A stretch of 64,000 bases of DNA. Source: Elsinoe ampelina. Lineage: Eukaryota. The notes beneath the pieces were generated by a model. That model ran no database searches, was not told where the DNA came from, and saw only the letters and a list, made by a program, of their open reading frames with translations. Positions 6,505 through 63,157 of this stretch are shown here, piece after piece (position 1 is the stretch's first letter; the number at the start of each line of letters is the position of its first letter). The stretch spans positions 182,832 to 246,831 of the forward strand of contig ML992506.1 of NCBI GenBank assembly GCA_010093995.1, in the 5' to 3' direction. A program made the translations under genes and the position numbers.

Positions 6505-9460
6505 ATTCCTAGTAAATAGAACAAGCTTATTATTCTTATAAAGGGCTTATATAGGCTTAAATAAGCTACTACCCTCTAGTATAATACTATAGTTAAGGCA
6601 CTACTATTACTTAGTTTTATTAGATTCTATAGTAATACCTATCTCTTTATTAANNNNNNNNNNNNNNNNNNNNNNNNNNNNNNNNNNNNNNNNNNNNNNN
6701 NNNNNNNNNNNNNNNNNNNNNNNNNNNNNNNNNNNNNNNNNNNNNNNNNNNNNNNNNNNNNNNNNNNNNNNNNNNNNNNNNNNNNNNNNNNNNNNNNNNN
6801 NNNNNNNNNNNNNNNNNNNNNNNNNNNNNNNNNNNNNNNNNNNNNNNNNNNNNNNNNNNNNNNNNNNNNNNNNNNNNNNNNNNNNNNNNNNNNNNNNNNN
6901 NNNNNNNNNNNNNNNNNNNNNNNNNNNNNNNNNNNNNNNNNNNNNNNNNNNNNNNNNNNNNNNNNNNNNNNNNNNNNNNNNNNNNNNNNNNNNNNNNNNN
7001 NNNNNNNNNNNNNNNNNNNNNNNNNNNNNNNNNNNNNNNNNNNNNNNNNNNNNNNNNNNNNNNNNNNNNNNNNNNNNNNNNNNNNNNNNNNNNNNNNNNN
7101 NNNNNNNNNNNNNNNNNNNNNNNNNNNNNNNNNNNNNNNNNNNNNNNNNNNNNNNNNNNNNNNNNNNNNNNNNNNNNNNNNNNNNNNNNNNNNNNNNNNN
7201 NNNNNNNNNNNNNNNNNNNNNNNNNNNNNNNNNNNNNNNNNNNNNNNNNNNNNNNNNNNNNNNNNNNNNNNNNNNNNNNNNNNNNNNNNNNNNNNNNNNN
7301 NNNNNNNNNNNNNNNNNNNNNNNNNNNNNNNNNNNNNNNNNNNNNNNNNNNNNNNNNNNNNNNNNNNNNNNNNNNNNNNNNNNNNNNNNNNNNNNNNNNN
7401 NNNNNNNNNNNNNNNNNNNNNNNNNNNNNNNNNNNNNNNNNNNNNNNAATTATTACTATAGAGAGTAGTATAAACTTAAAGTAATTAAGCTTAAGTATAT
7501 TAATATAACTTAGTAATTAGCTAATATACTTATAAAGCCTAAATCTCCTAATAAGATCCTTAATTAATTAGTAAAGGCTAATTACTTAGTATATATCTAC
7601 ACTATATACTTATTTAGATTTTATATATATTATAATTTTAAGTATATTAGTTATACTACTACTACTTATTAAGCTATCTTATTTGTCTAAAGCTTAAAGT
7701 AAATTACTTTATTATTAAGAAGAGAGAAAGAAAAAGCTATTATAACTCTATTACTAGCTACTTATACCTAAGCTATATCTACTACTTAGTACTATTATTA
7801 CTTTTAATAACTCTTATCTATCCCCTACCTTAAATTACTTCTTTATAGAAGGAAAACCTCTTCTCTTATTACTACTAGTAGACCTTATAGAAGTATTAGA
7901 TCTAGACCTACTATACCTTATTAGTACTAGGCCTAGTATAAAAGCATAAATAGAAGAAAGCTAACTAGAGTAGCTAGTAGCTATAATCCTTATAAGCTCT
8001 ACTATATAGTTTATTACTATAGTAGCTAAGTTATAAACCTTAGTAGTAGTTAGGTTAGTAAGATCTATAAAGTTTATAGAGACTACTATAAAGTAGTAAG
8101 AGTTAGTATAAGTTATTAAGGTGTTAACTATACCTAATAATATCTCTAGCATATAGGCCCTTAGTAAGAACCTCTAAGGTAAAGTACTACTAAAAGAGAT
8201 AGACCTAGAGAGCTCTATTAGTAGGTGTATTAGGCTATATAGAATAGACTAAGTAATAACCCTTAAGCTACTTAGGGTCCTTATAGGTTTAGGAGAGCTA
8301 ATAGGCCTTAGAGTTAGAGTATAGTTAGCTAAGGAATATCTAGTATATTAGTTACTATAAGTATAGCAAGTATAGGCCTTATTAAGCTAACTAGGTAAAG
8401 TAATATACTTACTAAACTTACTACCTCTACTCTTACTCTAATTATTACTAAGGTTAGATCCCTAATACTTAGTATAGCAATTAGTGCTATAGTAGACTAC
8501 TCTACTAGTAGCACTAGAAGCTATTAAAGNNNNNNNNNNNNNNNNNNNNNNNNNNNNNNNNNNNNNNNNNNNNNNNNNNNNNNNNNNNNNNNNNNNNNNN
8601 NNNNNNNNNNNNNNNNNNNNNNNNNNNNNNNNNNNNNNNNNNNNNNNNNNNNNNNNNNNNNNNNNNNNNNNNNNNNNNNNNNNNNNNNNNNNNNNNNNNN
8701 NNNNNNNNNNNNNNNNNNNNNNNNNNNNNNNNNNNNNNNNNNNNNNNNNNNNNNNNNNNNNNNNNNNNNNNNNNNNNNNNNNNNNNNNNNNNNNNNNNNN
8801 NNNNNNNNNNNNNNNNNNNNNNNNNNNNNNNNNNNNNNNNNNAAGTAATTAGTCTTATAGTAGTATTATAATTAACATTAGAAGTACTAGGTAACCTTAA
8901 TAGAGGATTTCTCTTCTTACTACTACCTCTACTACCTAGTAAACTACTTAGAGTACTAGCACTAGTAGTAATACTACTAATGCCTAGCTATTACTATACT
9001 ATAGTGCTTATATTATAAGTGTTATTAATGTAGTATAGTAAGAAAGTAAAAGTGTTATATAAAAGAAAAGGCTACTACTATAAGTATAATAAAGAAAGAA
9101 GAAATTATAAAGAGGCTAGTTAGATACTTATATCTCTTTAATTAAGACTTATAAGCTAGTCTATTTACATAAACAATGGCTGCCTAGCTATTATTAATAG
9201 TTACTATTAACACTAACAATTATAAGCAATTATAAAGAGATAAAGTAATAAGCTAATTACTTTACTTACATGTAATAGAATAGTTCTCTAGCTTTAATAA
9301 TCTATACTAGAGGGGGAGTGTTATAATAGAAGGCTAGTACAGCTTCTCTAGTACTAAAGAACTAGCACTGATAAGTCAGCGCACGTACAGTAGATAAATC
9401 GGTTATTGTAACTCTCTGAATGAAATACACGTCTCTCGATCCGATTTGCCAGTAACAACA
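6505..9460 (+). mobile_element. Ty1/copia retrotransposon 3' part (RT, RNase H, long 3' region, PPT, LTR), RIP-inactivated, spans two assembly gaps
   Basis: 6505-6652 reads LIILIKGLYRLK*ATTL*YN...FIRFYSNTYLF (copia RT LKKxLYGLKQAxxxW...SDxCLF). ~7450-7545 reads YYYRE*YKLKVIKLKYI...**LANILIKP (copia RNase H ...EQLADILTKP). PPT AGGGGGAG at 9311-9318. Continuity across the gaps is assumed. Confidence 0.8.
9319..9460 (+). repeat. Short 3' LTR of the copia element (~142 bp)
   Basis: TGTTAT (RIPped TGTTGT) directly after the PPT; ACAACA at 9455-9460 (alternative end GTAACA at 9457). Confidence 0.65.
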
Positions 9461-53243: not shown

Positions 53244-54782
53244 TCACACTCTCGCGAACCTGATCCCCCTCCTCGTCTCCAATGCACCCGTTTTGAGATC
53301 CCATCCGGCTTCCTCTAGCCGGCTCATCAAGGTAGGGAACTCTCCGTCCACATACTCTTGTGCTGCCCTCAGCAACCCGGACGCGGTGGCTTGTCCTACC
53401 AGACCATTGGCATCCGTCATCGACTTTCCCTTGACTTCCTGATTACCATCTCCATACTCCACCGGAATTCCCCGCCCGAGCAGTTGCAGCGCTCGATAGG
53501 CCGTGAACCACGCATGTAATTGGTCCCGAACCACACTTGATTTCTCCAGCGCGATGAAGCAATGACGACTGCCAATGTCGAGATGAATGAGATATCGTCG
53601 TTGCGAGCCCTCATTGCCACTCCCAATACCATCGATGACAGACCGTCCAATATCGAAAGCATGTTGACCCTGCCCTCTGGGCATACCGACCCTGCCCAAG
53701 AACTCGTCAAACGACAATCCGATGCTCGCCCACCCCAGTACCCTCCCATTCAACCCTCTGACCACCCCATCCCGCTCAAACACCCTCTCCCTCCCCCTCA
53801 CCTCCTCCGGGCCCAACACCCTCCCCCCCTCTGTCCATCCCCCAAACACCACCCCAGCCCTCTGCCTATTCAACGTCCCCAACCTCACACTCCTCACCGC
53901 CATCCAATTCAACCACAAATGCGCCCCCAACAACCCCAACAGCACCACCCACGTCGCCACCCCCTCCCTCACATACCCCACCACCGCCCCACCCACCAAC
54001 ATGCCCACAAGACTAATCACCGTCTCCTGACTACTATCCTTGGCATTGAGTTCCGCCAAATTCCCCCACCGCGCAAAATGCGCCGACAAACTCGCCTTGC
54101 TACTCCCCGCGGCGACGCCACACAAGGCCTTGAGCGCCGACGCCCCGGCCAACACCGCCACCCTGCCCGTCCGCGGGAACGCAGGGGACAAACACTCCAG
54201 CACCATCGCCACGTCATTGAACACGTCCGCCGCCAGACGGTAGAGTTTACACTCGGGCTCCAGCGCGTTCCCCAGGCGATGCGCGAAGAGGATGGTGGTG
54301 ACTCGACCCAGCGAGTCTTGCAGGATGGATAGTAGGATGGCGAGGGTCGGGGAGGCGGAAGCGTCGCCTACGCCTAGGGTGGAGAGGACGGCGCGGGAGG
54401 AGAGGAGCGAGGCGATGGATGAGGTGAAGGCTTGGAGGGAGTCGTAGGTTTGGTACGGGAGGTAGTCCGGGGTTACGGAGTGGGGGTAGCCGGTGGGCAG
54501 GAAGAGGTGGAGGAGGCGCGTGGGGAGGGAGAGGAGGGTGGAGGGGGGCCGCTGGGGGGTGTGGTCAGTGGGCGAGTCGAGGGCGGAGTAGAAGTACAAG
54601 GGGTGGGGACTGGATGGAAAAACAGATGTTGGTGAGGAGGAGGGGGAGCTCACTATCACGTCTACGCGGACTTGATCGTCCGTGGACTTTCCATCTCGCT
54701 TGGTGGCATCTCTTGGGACGAATGTGGCGAGGATATTGCCTGCTTCGTCGGTGGAGACGATTCGAGGGAGCAATGAAGCCAT
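53244..54782 (-). CDS. DUF647/RUS1 (RUSF1) family protein
   Basis: FLPTGYPHSVTPDYLPYQTYDSLQAF, GVGD, EPECKLYRLAADVFND, HFARWGNLAELNAKDSSQETVISLVG, TLNRQR. Confidence 0.92.
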   Translation of the reverse strand: MASLLPRIVSTDEAGNILATFVPRDATKRDGKSTDDQVRVDVIVSSPSSSPTSVFPSSPHPLYFYSALDSPTDHTPQRPPSTLLSLPTRLLHLFLPTGYPHSVTPDYLPYQTYDSLQAFTSSIASLLSSRAVLSTLGVGDASASPTLAILLSILQDSLGRVTTILFAHRLGNALEPECKLYRLAADVFNDVAMVLECLSPAFPRTGRVAVLAGASALKALCGVAAGSSKASLSAHFARWGNLAELNAKDSSQETVISLVGMLVGGAVVGYVREGVATWVVLLGLLGAHLWLNWMAVRSVRLGTLNRQRAGVVFGGWTEGGRVLGPEEVRGRERVFERDGVVRGLNGRVLGWASIGLSFDEFLGRVGMPRGQGQHAFDIGRSVIDGIGSGNEGSQRRYLIHLDIGSRHCFIALEKSSVVRDQLHAWFTAYRALQLLGRGIPVEYGDGNQEVKGKSMTDANGLVGQATASGLLRAAQEYVDGEFPTLMSRLEEAGWDLKTGALETRRGIRFARV

Positions 54783-54998
54783 TGTCTTTGTTCGATCACC
54801 CTTGGGCTGGTTTGAAGGTGGGTGTGATGGGTTTGCTGGTCACAGCTTGTCTTGAGGACGTTGTGAACTCGACGTACGGCACCGGTAACGTCGAATCACG
54901 GCATGTACTGTAGTTGAGTGGGTGGGTCTTTTCAATCGAAGCAAAAATCACAATTTGTAGACTTCTGAGACTCGACACAGCATGTAGTCTGTTTGCTA

Positions 54999-56885: not shown

Positions 56886-59800
56886 ATGGCTCTCCTTCAA
56901 GCTCTAACAACTTCCTTCTTACTTCTCCAGTGTGCATTGGCACAACAAGTCTCTGTGCCCCCTGGTTTTCCGGGTGAAGAGGCCCCTTATCAAGTCAATC
57001 CGGATGGCATAACGCCTGCAAACCGACTGGGTACATGGCTCTATGGCTACACTGAATGCAAAAAGCGATTTGGCGACGGCGCCAAAGGCAAGATTGATGA
57101 TGCCTATTACGATGCCTGGCTCATCTCCAAGTGGGTCCGCTTCTTATTGCCCTCGGAATGCATATGTTAGGCGCTGGCTTCAGCTCGACATGGACATTCT
57201 CCTCCCTTCTTCTTGGCAAATTGCGGGCATGAAGCCGGACTGACACCCCTTAGCACCGCAGGAGTAAGGTCCAATATAGATTGGAACAACGCAGCAGCAT
57301 TGGAGTTCCTGGGTGCCCCCGGGCTGAATACCGACAAGCAATCCCAAATTCAAGCAGTGTTTGCCAATACGGCAACGGTCATATACAGCTACGTCAATCC
57401 ACTCACCAACTATATCAAGGTCCGTTGCGATGATCCGAATTTGCTATGCGACGCCGTGTGCAGGTACTGTCTCCCTAAACTCTATTCGATGCACGGCTCA
57501 TCGACCGGTCAACTAAAACAATCCAGTCCTGGCGGAACCCCAATCACCTCGACAGCATATGCATATGCTGGCAACAGGGACTCAGTCGATACCGATTATC
57601 CGATGATCAACTTCTGTCCAGCCTTCTTCCAACAGAGAAGTCTCAGTGATGCCGTCACGCGCGGCATGGCTTTGACCAAGCCTTTCAGTTTGGACCTAGA
57701 TGAATATGAAAACCGGGCACTGACATTCTTGGTAAACGATCGCAAACTCTGATTTCTCTGCCGTGCTGACCATAGCGACTAGCACGAGTTGTTCCATCTG
57801 GATCTCGCAGCTGACTCTAAAGACAACAAGCCCAATCCCCGAATTTACGATCTCACCATTGACATTTTCACTGGGCCAAATTCCCCTCCGATTTCGGAAG
57901 CAGCGTACACTTCTGAACTCGCAAAGATACTGGCTCGTTATCAAGGCGGCAGCGGAGGCTCGACAGGTTACTGGGTGCAGCGCAACTCCGAGAATTTGGC
58001 ATTATATGCTATGGCCAAATACGTCATGACGAAGAACGGCAACATCTATCCTCATCTGCCCATCGTCACAGATACCATAGTGGGAGCTCCGCATAGGTTC
58101 CTGTTGCCGTTTGTAAATTCAGGCACCGATTTTTATCTGAACGTCTCCGATCCCGTTGGAGCGCTAGGATCTTCCACATCAAAGCGGAAATGTCCCGACA
58201 ACACCGGTGGAGCTAACGGAAAAGTGACCATCGACGGATTTGCCCCTCAGAGTGCCTATCCAGATGCATACAACTCGCAGTTGGCGACATGGATGCAAGA
58301 CTTGGTCGCCACCCCAGATACTGGTTCCGGAGACAACGAGGGCAGCAGTGGCCAGCAAATTGCTGTCGCATCGTATACTAATCCTCTTGGAGACCCGGCT
58401 GCTTGGTCGCGGCTAATCTCCTATGACACGAACAAGGTCAGCGTTTTGGTTGCGAACGTCTTAAATGGTCCGGACTACATAGTTGACTCGTCCTGGGCTT
58501 CAGTGATCCAACAGGCAGCTGCCTCCGGCAAGACTGTTATCGGCTATGTTCGGACTGGTTATCTAGGCGTTAGTCAACAAAGATTCAAGACTAGACTAGG
58601 CTCTAGTAACCTCGCAGACTGGGCTTCACAGATCGAACAAGACGTAGATAAGTGGTTTGAACTATATCCCGGCGGTATTAGTGGCATCTTCTTCGACGAA
58701 GGATGGCCTGAATGTGGACCTAACAACATCTACTCTGACCTATACGCTCATATCAATGCTTACACGAAACGGAAGCATCCCGGTGCCTATACGGTACTTA
58801 ATCCCGGCTCTCCTATGGCCCAATGCTTCGAAGATACAATGGATACATTATTGACGTTCGAAAGCAGTTACGAAACCTATACTACGTCATTTGTTCCTAA
58901 CGACTGGACTCCAAAGGACGATCGTAAGATATGGCACATTATTTACAGAGTTCCACAGGATAAGATCGAAGAGGTCGCTACACTTGCTCGCTCGCGTCAC
59001 GCAGGATATGTCGAGATCACTGATGATGATAATCCAAATCCATACGACAACGTCCCGAGCGATGCGTACATGCAGGCCGTAATGGCTACTGTACAGGGTG
59101 GCAATGTTGGTATTGCAGTACCGAAAGAACTTGGGGGCTCGTATGTTGCAGGCTTACCGGGAGATACAACGATTACAGCATCGGATTATACCTCGGTAAC
59201 TATCGTCTGGTCGCCGGTAGCTAATGCTCTTGGCTACGCTGTATATCAGAACAGCCAACTTGTGCTCGAAATGCCCGCTACTCTAACTCGAGCTACGATA
59301 GGCATGCTGCAGCCCGGATCAGCCGGCCTTATCTTTGAGGTTAGGACCGTCTTGTCCTCGGGTGCTAGCGGAACCTCAAGAACAGTCTCCGGGACTACTA
59401 AGAAGCTTGACAGCGGCGGCTCAATCACAAATGTCAAGTACACGAGGAGCGGAGATACTGTCATTTATACGGCTGATGTCTTAGTCCCCTATGCCTTCGT
59501 ACGACTGTTCATTGGTGGACCACATAAAGGCAGTTGGTCCTGCAGTAGGTTGGCCTATTGACGCCGGTATCAACGCCGACACAGGCATGGGACAATGGAA
59601 ACTAGCCAACTACTTGGTGGAGGGCAACGACTTTTACTCTGGATTCTACAAATACAGTGGCTCATGGATCGAAGCCGGTACCAGCAACGCGGATTGGACC
59701 TGGACACCGCAAGGCACAGCGCCTCAGACACAATCGGGATATACGTACACCTGGAACGTTCCTATTGGCGGGACTGACGCGGTGCTCGACGATTACGCTA

Positions 59801-60297
59801 TCCAAGGCCAGGGCTATGCTTCGATCTCAAACGTATTTGGTGGTTCTCTACGCAGCTACAAGTGCGACGGTGATCCATGCGATGACAATCCAGACTACGA
59901 CTGTAAGGGTTCCACCCTCTGCTGGACCCCAAACCTGCTCAAGTGGTGTGACCTGGCCGTGAACAACCTCTCACGCACGGATGCCTTGTCCTATGCGACC
60001 TTGTAAGTCTCCCACCTTTACCCGTTCTTTTCTCAAAGATGGTTCTGACCTTGTATTGCCAGTGGCGGCCAAAAGACTGGCAATTGCTGGGGCGATGGTG
60101 CGAGCTCTGGATGTGGCGTCTTCATTCAAGGCAGCAATTGCCAAATCAGTGGCAATGATATCTGGCACGACTACCAGAACATACGCGATCTCGGGGGTTG
60201 CAAGAGATGCGGATCTTACTACCGTGAGGACGGCTGTAGGGTTGCCATTGACTTTGTGTCAACTTGTGATCTCAACACAGGAGGAACACTTTTTTAA
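56886..60297 (+). CDS. Secreted modular protein: HExxH metalloprotease-like + Spherulin-4/GH135 + FN3 + beta-rich domain + KP4-like domain; one frameshift near 59525
   Basis: Signal peptide MALLQALTTSFLLLQCALA. Introns 57131-57253, 57464-57526 (probable, in-frame), 57732-57782, 60003-60062. Motifs INFCPAFF, FL|HELFH, ENLALY; IGYVRTGY, GIFFDE, VLNPG, LLTFE; SVTIVWSP..GYAVY; CKGSTLC...GCKRCGS...VAIDFVSTC. Stop 60295-60297. Confidence 0.82.
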
Positions 60298-60593: not shown

Positions 60594-62759
60594 TCATCTA
60601 TGACCAAACAGCTCAAACTCCTCCCTCCCCTCTCCCGCCTCCTCCTCGCCTTCCTCCTCTCCTTCACTACCAGATTCGCTTTCACTCTCCCCTTCCTCGC
60701 TCCCTTCCTCAGTACCCTCTTCGCTCCCTTCTTCCTCCTCACCACCCCAGAAACCCATGTCCCTTTCTCCATCGCCCTCCCCATCCCCACTACTAGCCCG
60801 CCGCTTCCTACCTCGTTTCTCTTCCTCCCGCTGTCCTTCATTCCGCCAGTATGTCTCCCATCTCTCCATCCCTTCTGCCACGTCACGACGACTCCATCTC
60901 CCTCCTTCGGTGAGGCCGGCCATGACTTCTCCCATCCTCTCACCGGCTTTGCCCACTCGTTCTCGGGCATCGCGGTCGAGTGATTCCAGGTAGTGTCGCA
61001 TGGGGCTCAGACTGCGTCCGACTTTCTGCAGAAAGTCAAAGGGAGAAACGCCGAATCGTTCGAGAAAGTCGGGAGGAGAAATGTTGAGTCGTGCTAGGAA
61101 TTCGCTAGGGGAGATGCCGACCCGTGCAAGAAATTCGGAAGGCGCAACGCCAAAGCGGTCGAGGCGAGCCATGGCTAGGGTGAGGTAGTCGCTCTCGGTC
61201 TCTCGCGGAGGAGCATCCGGGTCCGAGGAGGTTGTGGATGAGCGGAGCCCAGTGAGGCGGGTAGGAGATAGTGAAGATGCCCATGAGCGAGGACTGGGTG
61301 CGCTAGGTGCCGAAGAAGGAGAGGAAGAGAGGAAGTAGCTGCGGGAGGGTGTCGAGGGATTGAGGTGGTTCGAACGAGTTGGAGACTGTGCGGCGAGCAG
61401 GTCAGATCGGGGCTGCTCTGCTGCCGTGGCAAGATCAGGGTCATCAAAAGAACGTAGGACGGTTGCTCCAGTAAAGTCATGCTGTCGCTGTAGGGCAGTC
61501 TCAGGTAATCCTGGAATAAATCGTGTATCTGAAGAACCGGTAGGGGTAAGCTGATTAGTGTTGTAGCCGTCGCACACAGGACATTTGAGACCGAGCCAAT
61601 GGAAAGGGGTCCATCCTCTACCACCACAATCATTGCAGCCTACCCAGACCCGGCGAGGCAGACGACGACGCTGCGATGGAGATCGAGTAGTCAAGCATAA
61701 ATTACGCAGCCCTGCTGACAGTCGAGAATCGGTCGCCTCCATGGAATCAGCAGTCGAAGGCCTCGTGTCCACGAACTCATCCTCAAAGTCCTCTTCTGGC
61801 ATGGGTTGCATCCTGATCTCGTCATCCAGTTTTCGCCACTGTAGCTCCATATTGACCGCGCTCTTGTTGCATACTGGACAGCGATACGTGACATTCATAA
61901 GATCCTTGTAGCATGCGGAATGCATGTAGTGTCCGCAAAGAAGGCTGACAACAGGCGTGGACGACGAGAAAAGGTACTCCAGACATAGTGGACAGTCGCA
62001 GTCTGTCGCTCGCTCGATGCACGGATGCGTACTCGAAGTCGATATTGATATGCAAACATTACACCTCTTGCAGTGGACAAAGTCTTTTCCCAGCCCCTCT
62101 CCCTTTCTGCAGATACCGCAGTCATCGCAGTGATAGATTCGCTTTGTGCTGTCATTGTCCCAAAGCTTACACTTGGGGCAATAGTAGTATGCTGCTTCTG
62201 TACCACAAGATATACAAATGTCCGAAGCTGCCTGCGCCGTCTTACACACCATGCAAAGCATATGCTGTGTCTTCCTCCTGTTCAGCTGGTGGTGCCATGG
62301 TAAGTCCAGACTGGCATCGTGACAGAATCGACAAGGAAACCACATCTTGCAATCGAAGCACTGGACCTTGACATTGCGCTTGTAGTGTTTGCACCCCAGT
62401 ATTGGCTCAGTCTCTTGGTCCAGCAGCTCGTCGAGCTCATCCTGAACATTCGTGTCTGGGTGGTAGGATGGGTCCTTGTCCTGATCCGTGAGATGAAATT
62501 CCACAGTGGTGGGAGCGTTCTCTTGCGTAGCTTTCGGCACTGAAGATCTTGTAGGGAGTGGCTTGTTTCTTGACTGATATGTTTCCACCATCAAATCATG
62601 CATCCTCTTGGCCGTCTCTTCAGTCGATAGGGCGAGCTCCCTTATCTCATGCATCTTCTCCCGCAGATCCCGCATGCCGTCATTCTCGGGCAGACCCCGC
62701 TCCGGAACTGTAGCATGGCCTTCAAGGGTTGTCGCTTGATCTGCTCGTTCGTGTGGCAT
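60594..62759 (-). CDS. CHY zinc finger/RING E3 ligase (Pirh2/RCHY1-like)
   Basis: LGCKHYKRNVKVQCFDC..CRFCHD, YYCPKCKLWD, HCDDCGICR, RING CPLCLEYLF..CGHYMHSAC..YRCPVC, zinc ribbon CNDC..FHWLGLKCPVCDGYNT; start may lie further upstream. Confidence 0.9.
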   Translation of the reverse strand: MPHERADQATTLEGHATVPERGLPENDGMRDLREKMHEIRELALSTEETAKRMHDLMVETYQSRNKPLPTRSSVPKATQENAPTTVEFHLTDQDKDPSYHPDTNVQDELDELLDQETEPILGCKHYKRNVKVQCFDCKMWFPCRFCHDASLDLPWHHQLNRRKTQHMLCMVCKTAQAASDICISCGTEAAYYYCPKCKLWDNDSTKRIYHCDDCGICRKGEGLGKDFVHCKRCNVCISISTSSTHPCIERATDCDCPLCLEYLFSSSTPVVSLLCGHYMHSACYKDLMNVTYRCPVCNKSAVNMELQWRKLDDEIRMQPMPEEDFEDEFVDTRPSTADSMEATDSRLSAGLRNLCLTTRSPSQRRRLPRRVWVGCNDCGGRGWTPFHWLGLKCPVCDGYNTNQLTPTGSSDTRFIPGLPETALQRQHDFTGATVLRSFDDPDLATAAEQPRSDLLAAQSPTRSNHLNPSTPSRSYFLSSSPSSAPSAPSPRSWASSLSPTRLTGLRSSTTSSDPDAPPRETESDYLTLAMARLDRFGVAPSEFLARVGISPSEFLARLNISPPDFLERFGVSPFDFLQKVGRSLSPMRHYLESLDRDARERVGKAGERMGEVMAGLTEGGRWSRRDVAEGMERWETYWRNEGQREEEKRGRKRRASSGDGEGDGERDMGFWGGEEEEGSEEGTEEGSEEGESESESGSEGEEEGEEEAGEGREEFELFGHR

Positions 62760-63157
62760 GGCGCAAGCTGCTCAGCTGGTGGGTTGCAGGTGACGGATTC
62801 GTCTCGTAGCACTGAGGTCTGGTCGGGTGGTGTTAGGATGTCGCTACATATCCCTTGGACCCAGGGCTAGCTCGAAAAGTGAGAAGCAAAGGAAAATACA
62901 ATAGAGATGCAAGATGACATGGCGAAAAGCGGAGAAAGGGTGGAGACGAATGCAGGTGCAGGCTGATCAAGGTTGCAGGATTCTGGACCCACACATGTGC
63001 AGAGATGTTGCAGATCAAGCATGTGATCCTTGGCAGTGACCAGGCATAAAATTGATCTACATACGAGCAATTGTAGATCATATTTCCAACGCAATCTATC
63101 ATGATATCAAAACTCCGCGCTGTGAATCAAATATGTTCAGATCGACCTCCGAGGTTA

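Follow-up and report, generated by a model that had tools for sequence, protein, structure and literature searches.

On the forward strand of a 64,000-nucleotide stretch of the Elsinoe ampelina genome (contig ML992506.1, positions 182,832 to 246,831; hereafter the window), a fungal gene runs from an ATG at 56886 to a terminal TAA at 60295-60297. The gene is transcribed and spliced; it encodes a modular protein, predicted to be secreted, that is truncated in this genome by a one-base frame shift, and its relatives are probably matrix-directed enzymes. The predicted order of modules is a signal peptide, a zinc protease of M35/aspzincin fold, a glycoside hydrolase family 135 (GH135) domain, a fibronectin type III (FN3) domain, a beta-rich domain, and an MU117 domain of KP4 fold. 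The extra base would leave a protease-GH135-FN3 product, and the gene would be either recently truncated or at an early stage of becoming a pseudogene. An earlier note on this DNA had read the gene as one protein of about 1,040 residues after splicing; instead, the frame breaks within 59526-59531 and the frame of the ATG yields 812 residues.

A spliced gene interrupted by one extra base

Translation from the ATG at 56886 reaches a stop codon at 59559-59561 after 812 residues. The predicted product is devoid of most of the beta-rich domain and of the entire KP4-like domain. A different frame, with 235 open codons before the TAA, encodes the beta-rich and Cys-rich parts. Four intact homologs among the proteins retrieved (P0001, P0003, P0195, and P0211) read straight through the junction. 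When aligned to the window by tblastn, all four follow frame 3 up to 59528 and frame 1 from 59461-59527 on, with the switch at 59527/59528, and the window therefore holds one surplus base within 59526-59531.

Contigs from sequencing runs of three studies cover this site. The DNA contig of run X1 spans the entire gene stretch in unspliced form, and runs X3, X4, and X6, presumed but not recorded to be RNA runs, come from two further studies. As their contigs contain spliced joints, these likely-RNA runs are of complementary DNA origin. X3 record 4 is continuous over 57782-60002, where it shows neither gaps nor differing letters, and the shift site is also covered with 0 differences by X4 record 12 (59426-59802) and X6 record 15 (59479-59738). 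The extra base is thus common to the X1 contig and to the contigs of the three likely-RNA runs, none of which has a joint there. This agreement shows that the shift is not an error of the window assembly. X3 record 4 extends to 60406, which means that the transcript gets to the normal 3′ end.

The gene has four predicted GT..AG introns at 57131-57253, 57464-57526, 57732-57782, and 60003-60062 (123, 63, 51, and 60 nt). X3 contigs show the joints of all four and X4 contigs those of two; the joint 57130>57254 was seen in an X3 contig (n = 1, side 30). All four lengths are divisible by three, and therefore exons 1-4 lie in a common frame and tblastn passes them as a single alignment. Around intron 1 (57101-57283), X3 holds both the spliced joint and an unspliced contig (record 3), which may be retention or pre-mRNA. 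The features of the gene are as follows.

56886-57130, forward strand: exon 1, with the ATG, an N-terminus that resembles a signal peptide by eye, and the first part of the M35-like module; residue 1 of P0048 aligns at 56886
57131-57253, forward strand: intron 1, 123 nt, GT..AG; X3 joint
57254-57463, forward strand: exon 2, M35-like module; open reading frames (ORFs) and contig joints
57464-57526, forward strand: intron 2, 63 nt, GT..AG; X3 and X4 joints
57527-57731, forward strand: exon 3, with the INFCP motif of the M35-like module; F187 and C188 each in 33/36 sequences of alignment A1
57732-57782, forward strand: intron 3, 51 nt, GT..AG; X3 joint
57783-58352, forward strand: second half of the M35-like module (HELFH at 57783-57797), KR near 58182, G/S/D linker
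58356-59084, forward strand: GH135/Spherulin4 domain with motifs GIFFDE, NPG, and TFE; PF12138 at E 6.8e-37
59157-59390, forward strand: FN3-like domain; below threshold here, above it in homologs
59391-59895, forward strand: aromatic beta-rich domain, interrupted by the frame shift; 57 homologs
59526-59531, forward strand: frame-shift site, one base extra relative to intact homologs; tblastn and X1, X3, X4, and X6 contigs
59559-59561, forward strand: stop codon in the start-codon frame (812-residue product); translation
59896-60002, forward strand: first part of the MU117 domain (putative KP4 fold), out of the start-codon frame; MU117 profile positions 1-30
60003-60062, forward strand: intron 4, 60 nt, GT..AG; X3 and X4 joints
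60063-60297, forward strand: remainder of the MU117 domain (putative KP4 fold) and TAA of the shifted frame; PF15474 at E 1.7e-12

The motifs on which the earlier note had built its reading are all in place, i.e., HELFH directly after intron 3, INFCPAFF, ENLALY, GIFFDE, NPG, TFE, and the G/S/D linker.

An intron at the shift site and programmed frameshifting were both rejected. A candidate 47-nt GT..AG intron at the shift site (59499-59545) gives the wrong frame and meets a stop, as judged by eye. Candidate introns of 31 nt and 19 nt are too short, and no contig has a joint at the site. Programmed frameshifting was ruled out since 4/4 homologs pass straight through.

The shift looks recent, because no further stop interrupts the shifted frame and MU117 has kept its ten Cys: this frame encodes 12 Cys, and the 10 in the MU117 domain (read from P0194) coincide with the 10 invariant or near-invariant Cys columns of alignment A2. 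At position 59970, one X4 contig (depth 3.1) is without 4 letters in the out-of-frame MU117 part, either as an error or as a second lesion in another sample.

The shift could be private to the one strain sequenced or to a laboratory line of it, with the species normally making the full five-module protein. The frame intact over 235 codons fits this, as do P0211 (labeled Elsinoe batatas) and the 87%-identical P0195, which pass through the site, and the single organism label of all runs, with 0 differences. The contigs of three studies nevertheless concur, and the X4 deletion, if real, would be consistent with decay of an out-of-frame region. We regard such a private lesion as improbable.

The public gene model conceals the frame shift

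The public protein P0194, whose source label is Elsinoe ampelina, is 100% identical to the last two exons of the window. Its model (58293-60297) begins at an internal Met and leaves out the whole M35-like module. It crosses the shift site by dropping six residues, equivalent to a 19-nt GT..AG 'intron' at 59515-59533 that has no support in any contig. The public gene model thus masks a real frame shift. Because the annotation conceals the shift and omits the protease module, the secretome of this strain, as annotated, should not be credited with the five-module protein. In a published Elsinoe secretome, GH135 appears as a table entry only (PMC11609419).

The N-terminal module is predicted to have an M35 fold

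Exons 1-3 gave no significant Pfam match (a weak DUF3903 on exon 1 at E 0.22, nothing on exons 2 and 3). Unlike for M35 enzymes, no peptidase family of Pfam matched the window exons at E ≤ 1 or 24 scanned relatives at E ≤ 0.01. When the 190 residues that follow intron 3 were used as a HMMER query, 146 representatives came up at E ≤ 1e-3, of which 63 reached E ≤ 1e-10. In the alignment of 36 sequences, the HExxH motif is nearly invariant (H 35/36, E 36/36, H 36/36), and D247 (36/36), Y264 (33/36), and K270 (36/36) are also conserved; all three are present in the window. M35 enzymes carry the motif GTxDxxYG, with the Asp as third zinc ligand together with a Tyr. The family has an invariant Asp 16 residues downstream of HExxH; the invariant D247 and Y264-G265 are separated by 17 residues, so that the contiguous GTxDxxYG is not present.

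The fold was assessed on an AlphaFold model of P0048 (labeled Aspergillus avenaceus), a relative with 53% identity to the window in the half used as query; the model has a mean predicted local distance difference test score (pLDDT) of 73.4 and a predicted template modeling score of 0.76. Foldseek against the PDB placed deuterolysin 1eb6 first (E 2e-5) and also returned AsaP1, a Grifola Lys-specific peptidase, and Candida Pra1. VIA-align superposed the model on 1eb6 with Z 15.8 (root-mean-square deviation (rmsd) 2.4, 173/177 residues, 22% identity), the next unrelated entry having Z 4.2. The likeness extends to 1g12 (Z 15.1), AsaP1 2x3b (Z 15.5), and Candida Pra1 9n47 (Z 13.6), and the HExxH with its invariant Glu is a further point in common with M35. 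As judged from this model, the N-terminal module has an M35/aspzincin fold, and by sequence it is a separate family that has no Pfam model. The earlier identification of the module as zinc-protease-like and M35/aspzincin-like was therefore right at the level of fold. The module differs from mature M35 enzymes in size, with about 400 residues against 167-177.

A Pfam scan of 24 representatives of the M35-like module left 13 without any family; partner domains in the others were Spherulin4 (4), LysM14_C (3), Fungal_lectin_2 (2), GH18 (2), and MU117 (1). In P0101, P0163, P0103, P0146, P0070, P0086, and P0153 the module stands beside GH18, LysM14_C, Fungal_lectin_2, or MU117, and P0070 bears the UniRef name 'Lysine-specific metallo-endopeptidase domain-containing protein'. 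The M35-like module seems to have been shuffled among secreted wall-directed proteins of fungi.

The GH135 and FN3 domains

The predicted Spherulin-4/GH135 domain was borne out by PF12138 at 58356-59084 (127.7 bits against a gathering score of 30.2). In a phmmer comparison with the Aspergillus Sph3 chains 5c5g and 5d6t, members of the same family, the motifs GIFFDE, NPG, and FE are in register at E 0.002. We take D166 of Sph3 to be the Asp of the FFDE motif. The D166A variant of Sph3 is described as catalytically inactive (10.1101/113696). The two proteins are distant in sequence, and the window domain sits in a predicted secreted multi-module protein among housekeeping neighbors, whereas Sph3 is described as encoded in the galactosaminogalactan (GAG) cluster and as bearing a transmembrane domain close to the N terminus (PMC11356417).

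The nearest non-fungal GH135 relatives are actinomycete proteins of 45-54% identity, among them a Lentzea protein (P0014), which matches 73% of the query at 54% identity. Ten actinomycete or metagenomic GH135 proteins (P0014, P0035, P0036, and P0038-P0044) are 45-54% identical to the GH135-FN3 part of the window. This hints at a shared clade of actinomycete and ascomycete GH135 domains or at transfer between them. Since the window domain is closer to actinomycete GH135 than to Sph3, its clade is distinct from that of Sph3, and a substrate like that of Sph3 can only be presumed.

An FN3-like domain (PF00041) lies at 59157-59390, in the place that had been proposed; in the window it scores 15.4 bits (E 0.023), below the cut-off of 25. 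At the same place the homologs P0006, P0016, P0030, and P0012 pass the cut-off with 29.2-34.0 bits (P0016 34.0, P0006 29.3).

Architecture and spread of the family

Among 47 homologs longer than 1,001 residues, 29 carry both Spherulin4 and MU117. In front of this core, nine of the 47 have an SGNH/GDSL esterase and one has a subtilase. Pfam scans of eight homologs bore out the order N-terminal module, Spherulin4, FN3, MU117. Judged by these sequence matches, the GH135-FN3-beta-MU117 core is widespread, occurring in Aspergillus, Penicillium, and Helotiales proteomes as uncharacterized proteins. 'Fibronectin type III domain / Spherulation-specific family 4' proteins, such as P0012, P0043, and P0003, share the core at 43-76% identity; they differ in being encoded in a single frame and in having an SGNH esterase or an unassigned N-terminus where the window has the M35-like protease.

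The M35-like profile also matches further GH135 proteins, such as P0219 (935 residues, Aspergillus carlsbadensis) and P0221 (938 residues, Bisporella). In all 14 M35-like-GH135 relatives examined, the final 130 residues contain 0-2 Cys, and therefore MU117 is present in 0/14; 10 of the 14 end soon after the beta-rich domain. The exact five-module combination in one frame was found in none of the retrieved proteins. P0211 is a partial model with the M35-like part that reads through the shift site and ends just before the Cys-rich domain.

The earlier note knew of no described protein with this architecture. This has to be revised, as the core is common in mold proteomes and the KP4 fold of PF15474 is already reported in a published paper (PMC12382754). 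In the literature on MU117/PF15474, GH135/Sph3/spherulin, and PF12138/Spherulin4, supplements aside, we found no description of the fusion.

Genomic neighborhood

The gene is flanked by ordinary housekeeping genes, a CHY/RING zinc-finger protein (60594-62771, reverse strand) and a UVB_sens (RUS-like) protein (53244-54839, reverse strand). We scanned 20 large ORFs of the 105 listed at ≥ 130 residues in the window and found housekeeping families, i.e., G-patch, SUZ, PPR, VTC, Mpp10, RGS, UVB_sens, CHY/RING, ABC1, and AMP-binding. No family of the GAG cluster was among these 20 ORFs, in line with the earlier observation that GAG-synthesis genes are not visible in the window, and the scanned neighbors included no toxin or immunity genes. 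At 6655-7447 the window has a run of about 793 N in very AT-rich flanks, an assembly gap or masked region that gave rise to six spurious ORFs.

The C-terminal domain is predicted to have a KP4-like fold

Upstream of the C-terminal domain, the beta-rich domain has 57 homologs; Pfam gives it a weak DUF7604 (E 0.063), and the best score in an ESM Atlas search, 0.76, was at noise level, so that it is left without a family.

The Cys-rich C-terminal domain is present as predicted and belongs to MU117 (PF15474). The final exon of the gene (numbered exon 6) alone scores 48.4 bits against a gathering score of 30.4 (E 1.7e-12), and P0194, which is identical to the window in this domain, scores 71.3 bits over profile positions 1-105. 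Pfam Kp4 (PF09044) matched neither the window exons (E ≤ 1) nor P0194 (E ≤ 10). The relative P0250 (169 residues, labeled Aspergillus terreus) reached E 0.049 with 14.2 bits, below the cut-off of 27.8.

We modeled P0250, which is 67% identical to exon 6, from an alignment of 40 rows. The overall pLDDT is 70.1, and residues 50-169 are confident. The sole PDB match of the model in Foldseek at E ≤ 0.001 was KP4 of the Ustilago maydis virus P4 (1kpt; E 5.2e-4, template modeling score 0.67 on the target). VIA-align gave Z 11.0 for 1kpt (rmsd 2.5, 99/105 residues, 22% identity) and Z 7.6 for Zt-KP4 (8acx). A Foldseek-independent search of 48,161 representative chains again ranked 1kpt first (Z 10.8) and as the only chain at Z ≥ 8. 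A phmmer search with P0250 against PDB sequences found nothing related.

As far as this model of a relative indicates, the C-terminal domain has a KP4-like fold and is MU117, not Pfam Kp4, by sequence. It shares with KP4 the trait of conserved Cys, of which MU117 has ten. KP4 is a free 105-residue toxin; the window domain, by contrast, is the C-terminus of an enzyme of about 1,000 residues. The published paper places the PF15474 representative kcl38-A in Group 3 of the KP4 fold, apart from KP4 proper and Hce2 (PMC12382754). Of the earlier designation 'KP4-like', the part that concerns fold has thus stood, whereas a Pfam Kp4 match and an in-frame position in this genome have not.

The same fold also includes sugar binders, namely Y3 (Z 5.6), Gnk2 with mannose (Z 5.1), an alpha-galactosyl lectin of L. 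decastes (Z 4.7), and DUF26 PDLPs. MU117 could therefore be a lectin-like targeting module, the enzymes remodeling or scavenging polymers rich in N-acetylgalactosamine (GalNAc), including the producer's own matrix, with FN3, the beta-rich domain, and MU117 anchoring the enzyme. Fungal_lectin_2, the family of the L. decastes lectin, follows the M35-like module in P0070 and P0086, and several bacterial GH135 homologs (P0038, P0041, P0042, and P0044) carry ricin-type lectin domains. Against this, KP4 and Zt-KP4 outscore all the lectins (Z 11.0 and 7.6 versus ≤ 5.6). We see the lectin-like role as possible, with the odds against it.

Alternatively, at the level of the family the protein could be an antifungal weapon, in which GH135 would digest a competitor's GAG-like matrix and a tethered or released KP4-like domain would poison the competitor in the manner of KP4. 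KP4 is the closest solved fold, far above the lectins, and the Kp4 match of P0250, below threshold as it is, points the same way. The absence of GAG-synthesis families from the 20 scanned ORFs also favors this proposal. Zt-KP4 proteins are reported to inhibit fungal growth (PMC12382754), and, as a precedent, loss of the Hce2-bearing C-II GH18 protein ChiC2-2 is reported to lower the killing of other fungi by Aspergillus nidulans (preprint 10.1101/2024.10.25.620242).

Several observations argue the other way. The KP4-like domain is out of frame in this genome, all 14 M35-like-GH135 relatives examined manage without the Cys-rich tail, and a common fold is no proof of toxicity. Our literature search gave no toxicity or channel data for PF15474 proteins. 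The KR dibasic site near 58182 described in the earlier note does exist but is not conserved: in 0/13 relatives do the 75 residues that precede GH135 contain a dibasic site, and there is thus no conserved processing site. The weapon hypothesis is, in our judgment, rather unlikely.

Function of the family

We favor the explanation that the window holds a truncated member of a family of matrix-directed enzymes. Intact relatives would work extracellularly, on GalNAc-rich exopolysaccharide or wall material, with GH135 as the putative core enzyme. The N-terminal position would be filled by a second hydrolase that can be exchanged (an M35-like protease, SGNH esterase, subtilase, or a module of unknown kind), and the C-terminal domains may be binding or toxic modules. 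As the tail is out of frame, it serves neither a toxin nor a lectin role in this strain.

Some points weigh against this explanation. The signal peptide call was made by eye; the KP4-fold model is that of the Aspergillus relative P0250, not of the window domain itself. The specificity of the GH135 domain may differ from that of Sph3, the distant protein from which the substrate is taken. The runs of the three studies, with one organism label and 0 differences, are possibly from one strain, contigs lose rare variants, and an intact allele may exist elsewhere in Elsinoe ampelina.

The window gene is a frame-shifted member of the GH135 variant of a theme that combines a glycosidase with a KP4-fold domain. 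Hce2-bearing C-II GH18 chitinases and the alpha/beta chitinase of zymocin likewise join a glycosidase for wall polymers to a KP4-fold domain. Hce2 forms Group 2 of the KP4 fold, and Hce2-GH18 chitinases have been proposed to act against other fungi (10.1101/2024.10.25.620242; PMC12382754). The window gene differs from these chitinases in having GH135, another KP4-fold subfamily, and neither LysM nor chitin-binding modules. Pfam found no GH18 in any window exon, and the likeness to killer chitinases is one of logic only. By analogy, intact members could make up a second class of fungal 'killer enzymes', one built on GH135, in which a swappable hydrolase and the glycosidase open the matrix and the KP4-fold domain poisons, a class whose function would have been lost recently in one plant pathogen; we give this little credence.

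While a fusion of glycosidase and KP4-fold domain was already known for GH18/Hce2, the GH135 version is common in Aspergillus, Penicillium, and plant-associated ascomycetes. A lectin function of the C-terminal domain would make it a new carbohydrate-binding module. If the domain is toxic, the family would link the degradation of galactosaminogalactan-type biofilms to fungal antagonism and may be a source of anti-biofilm and antifungal proteins.

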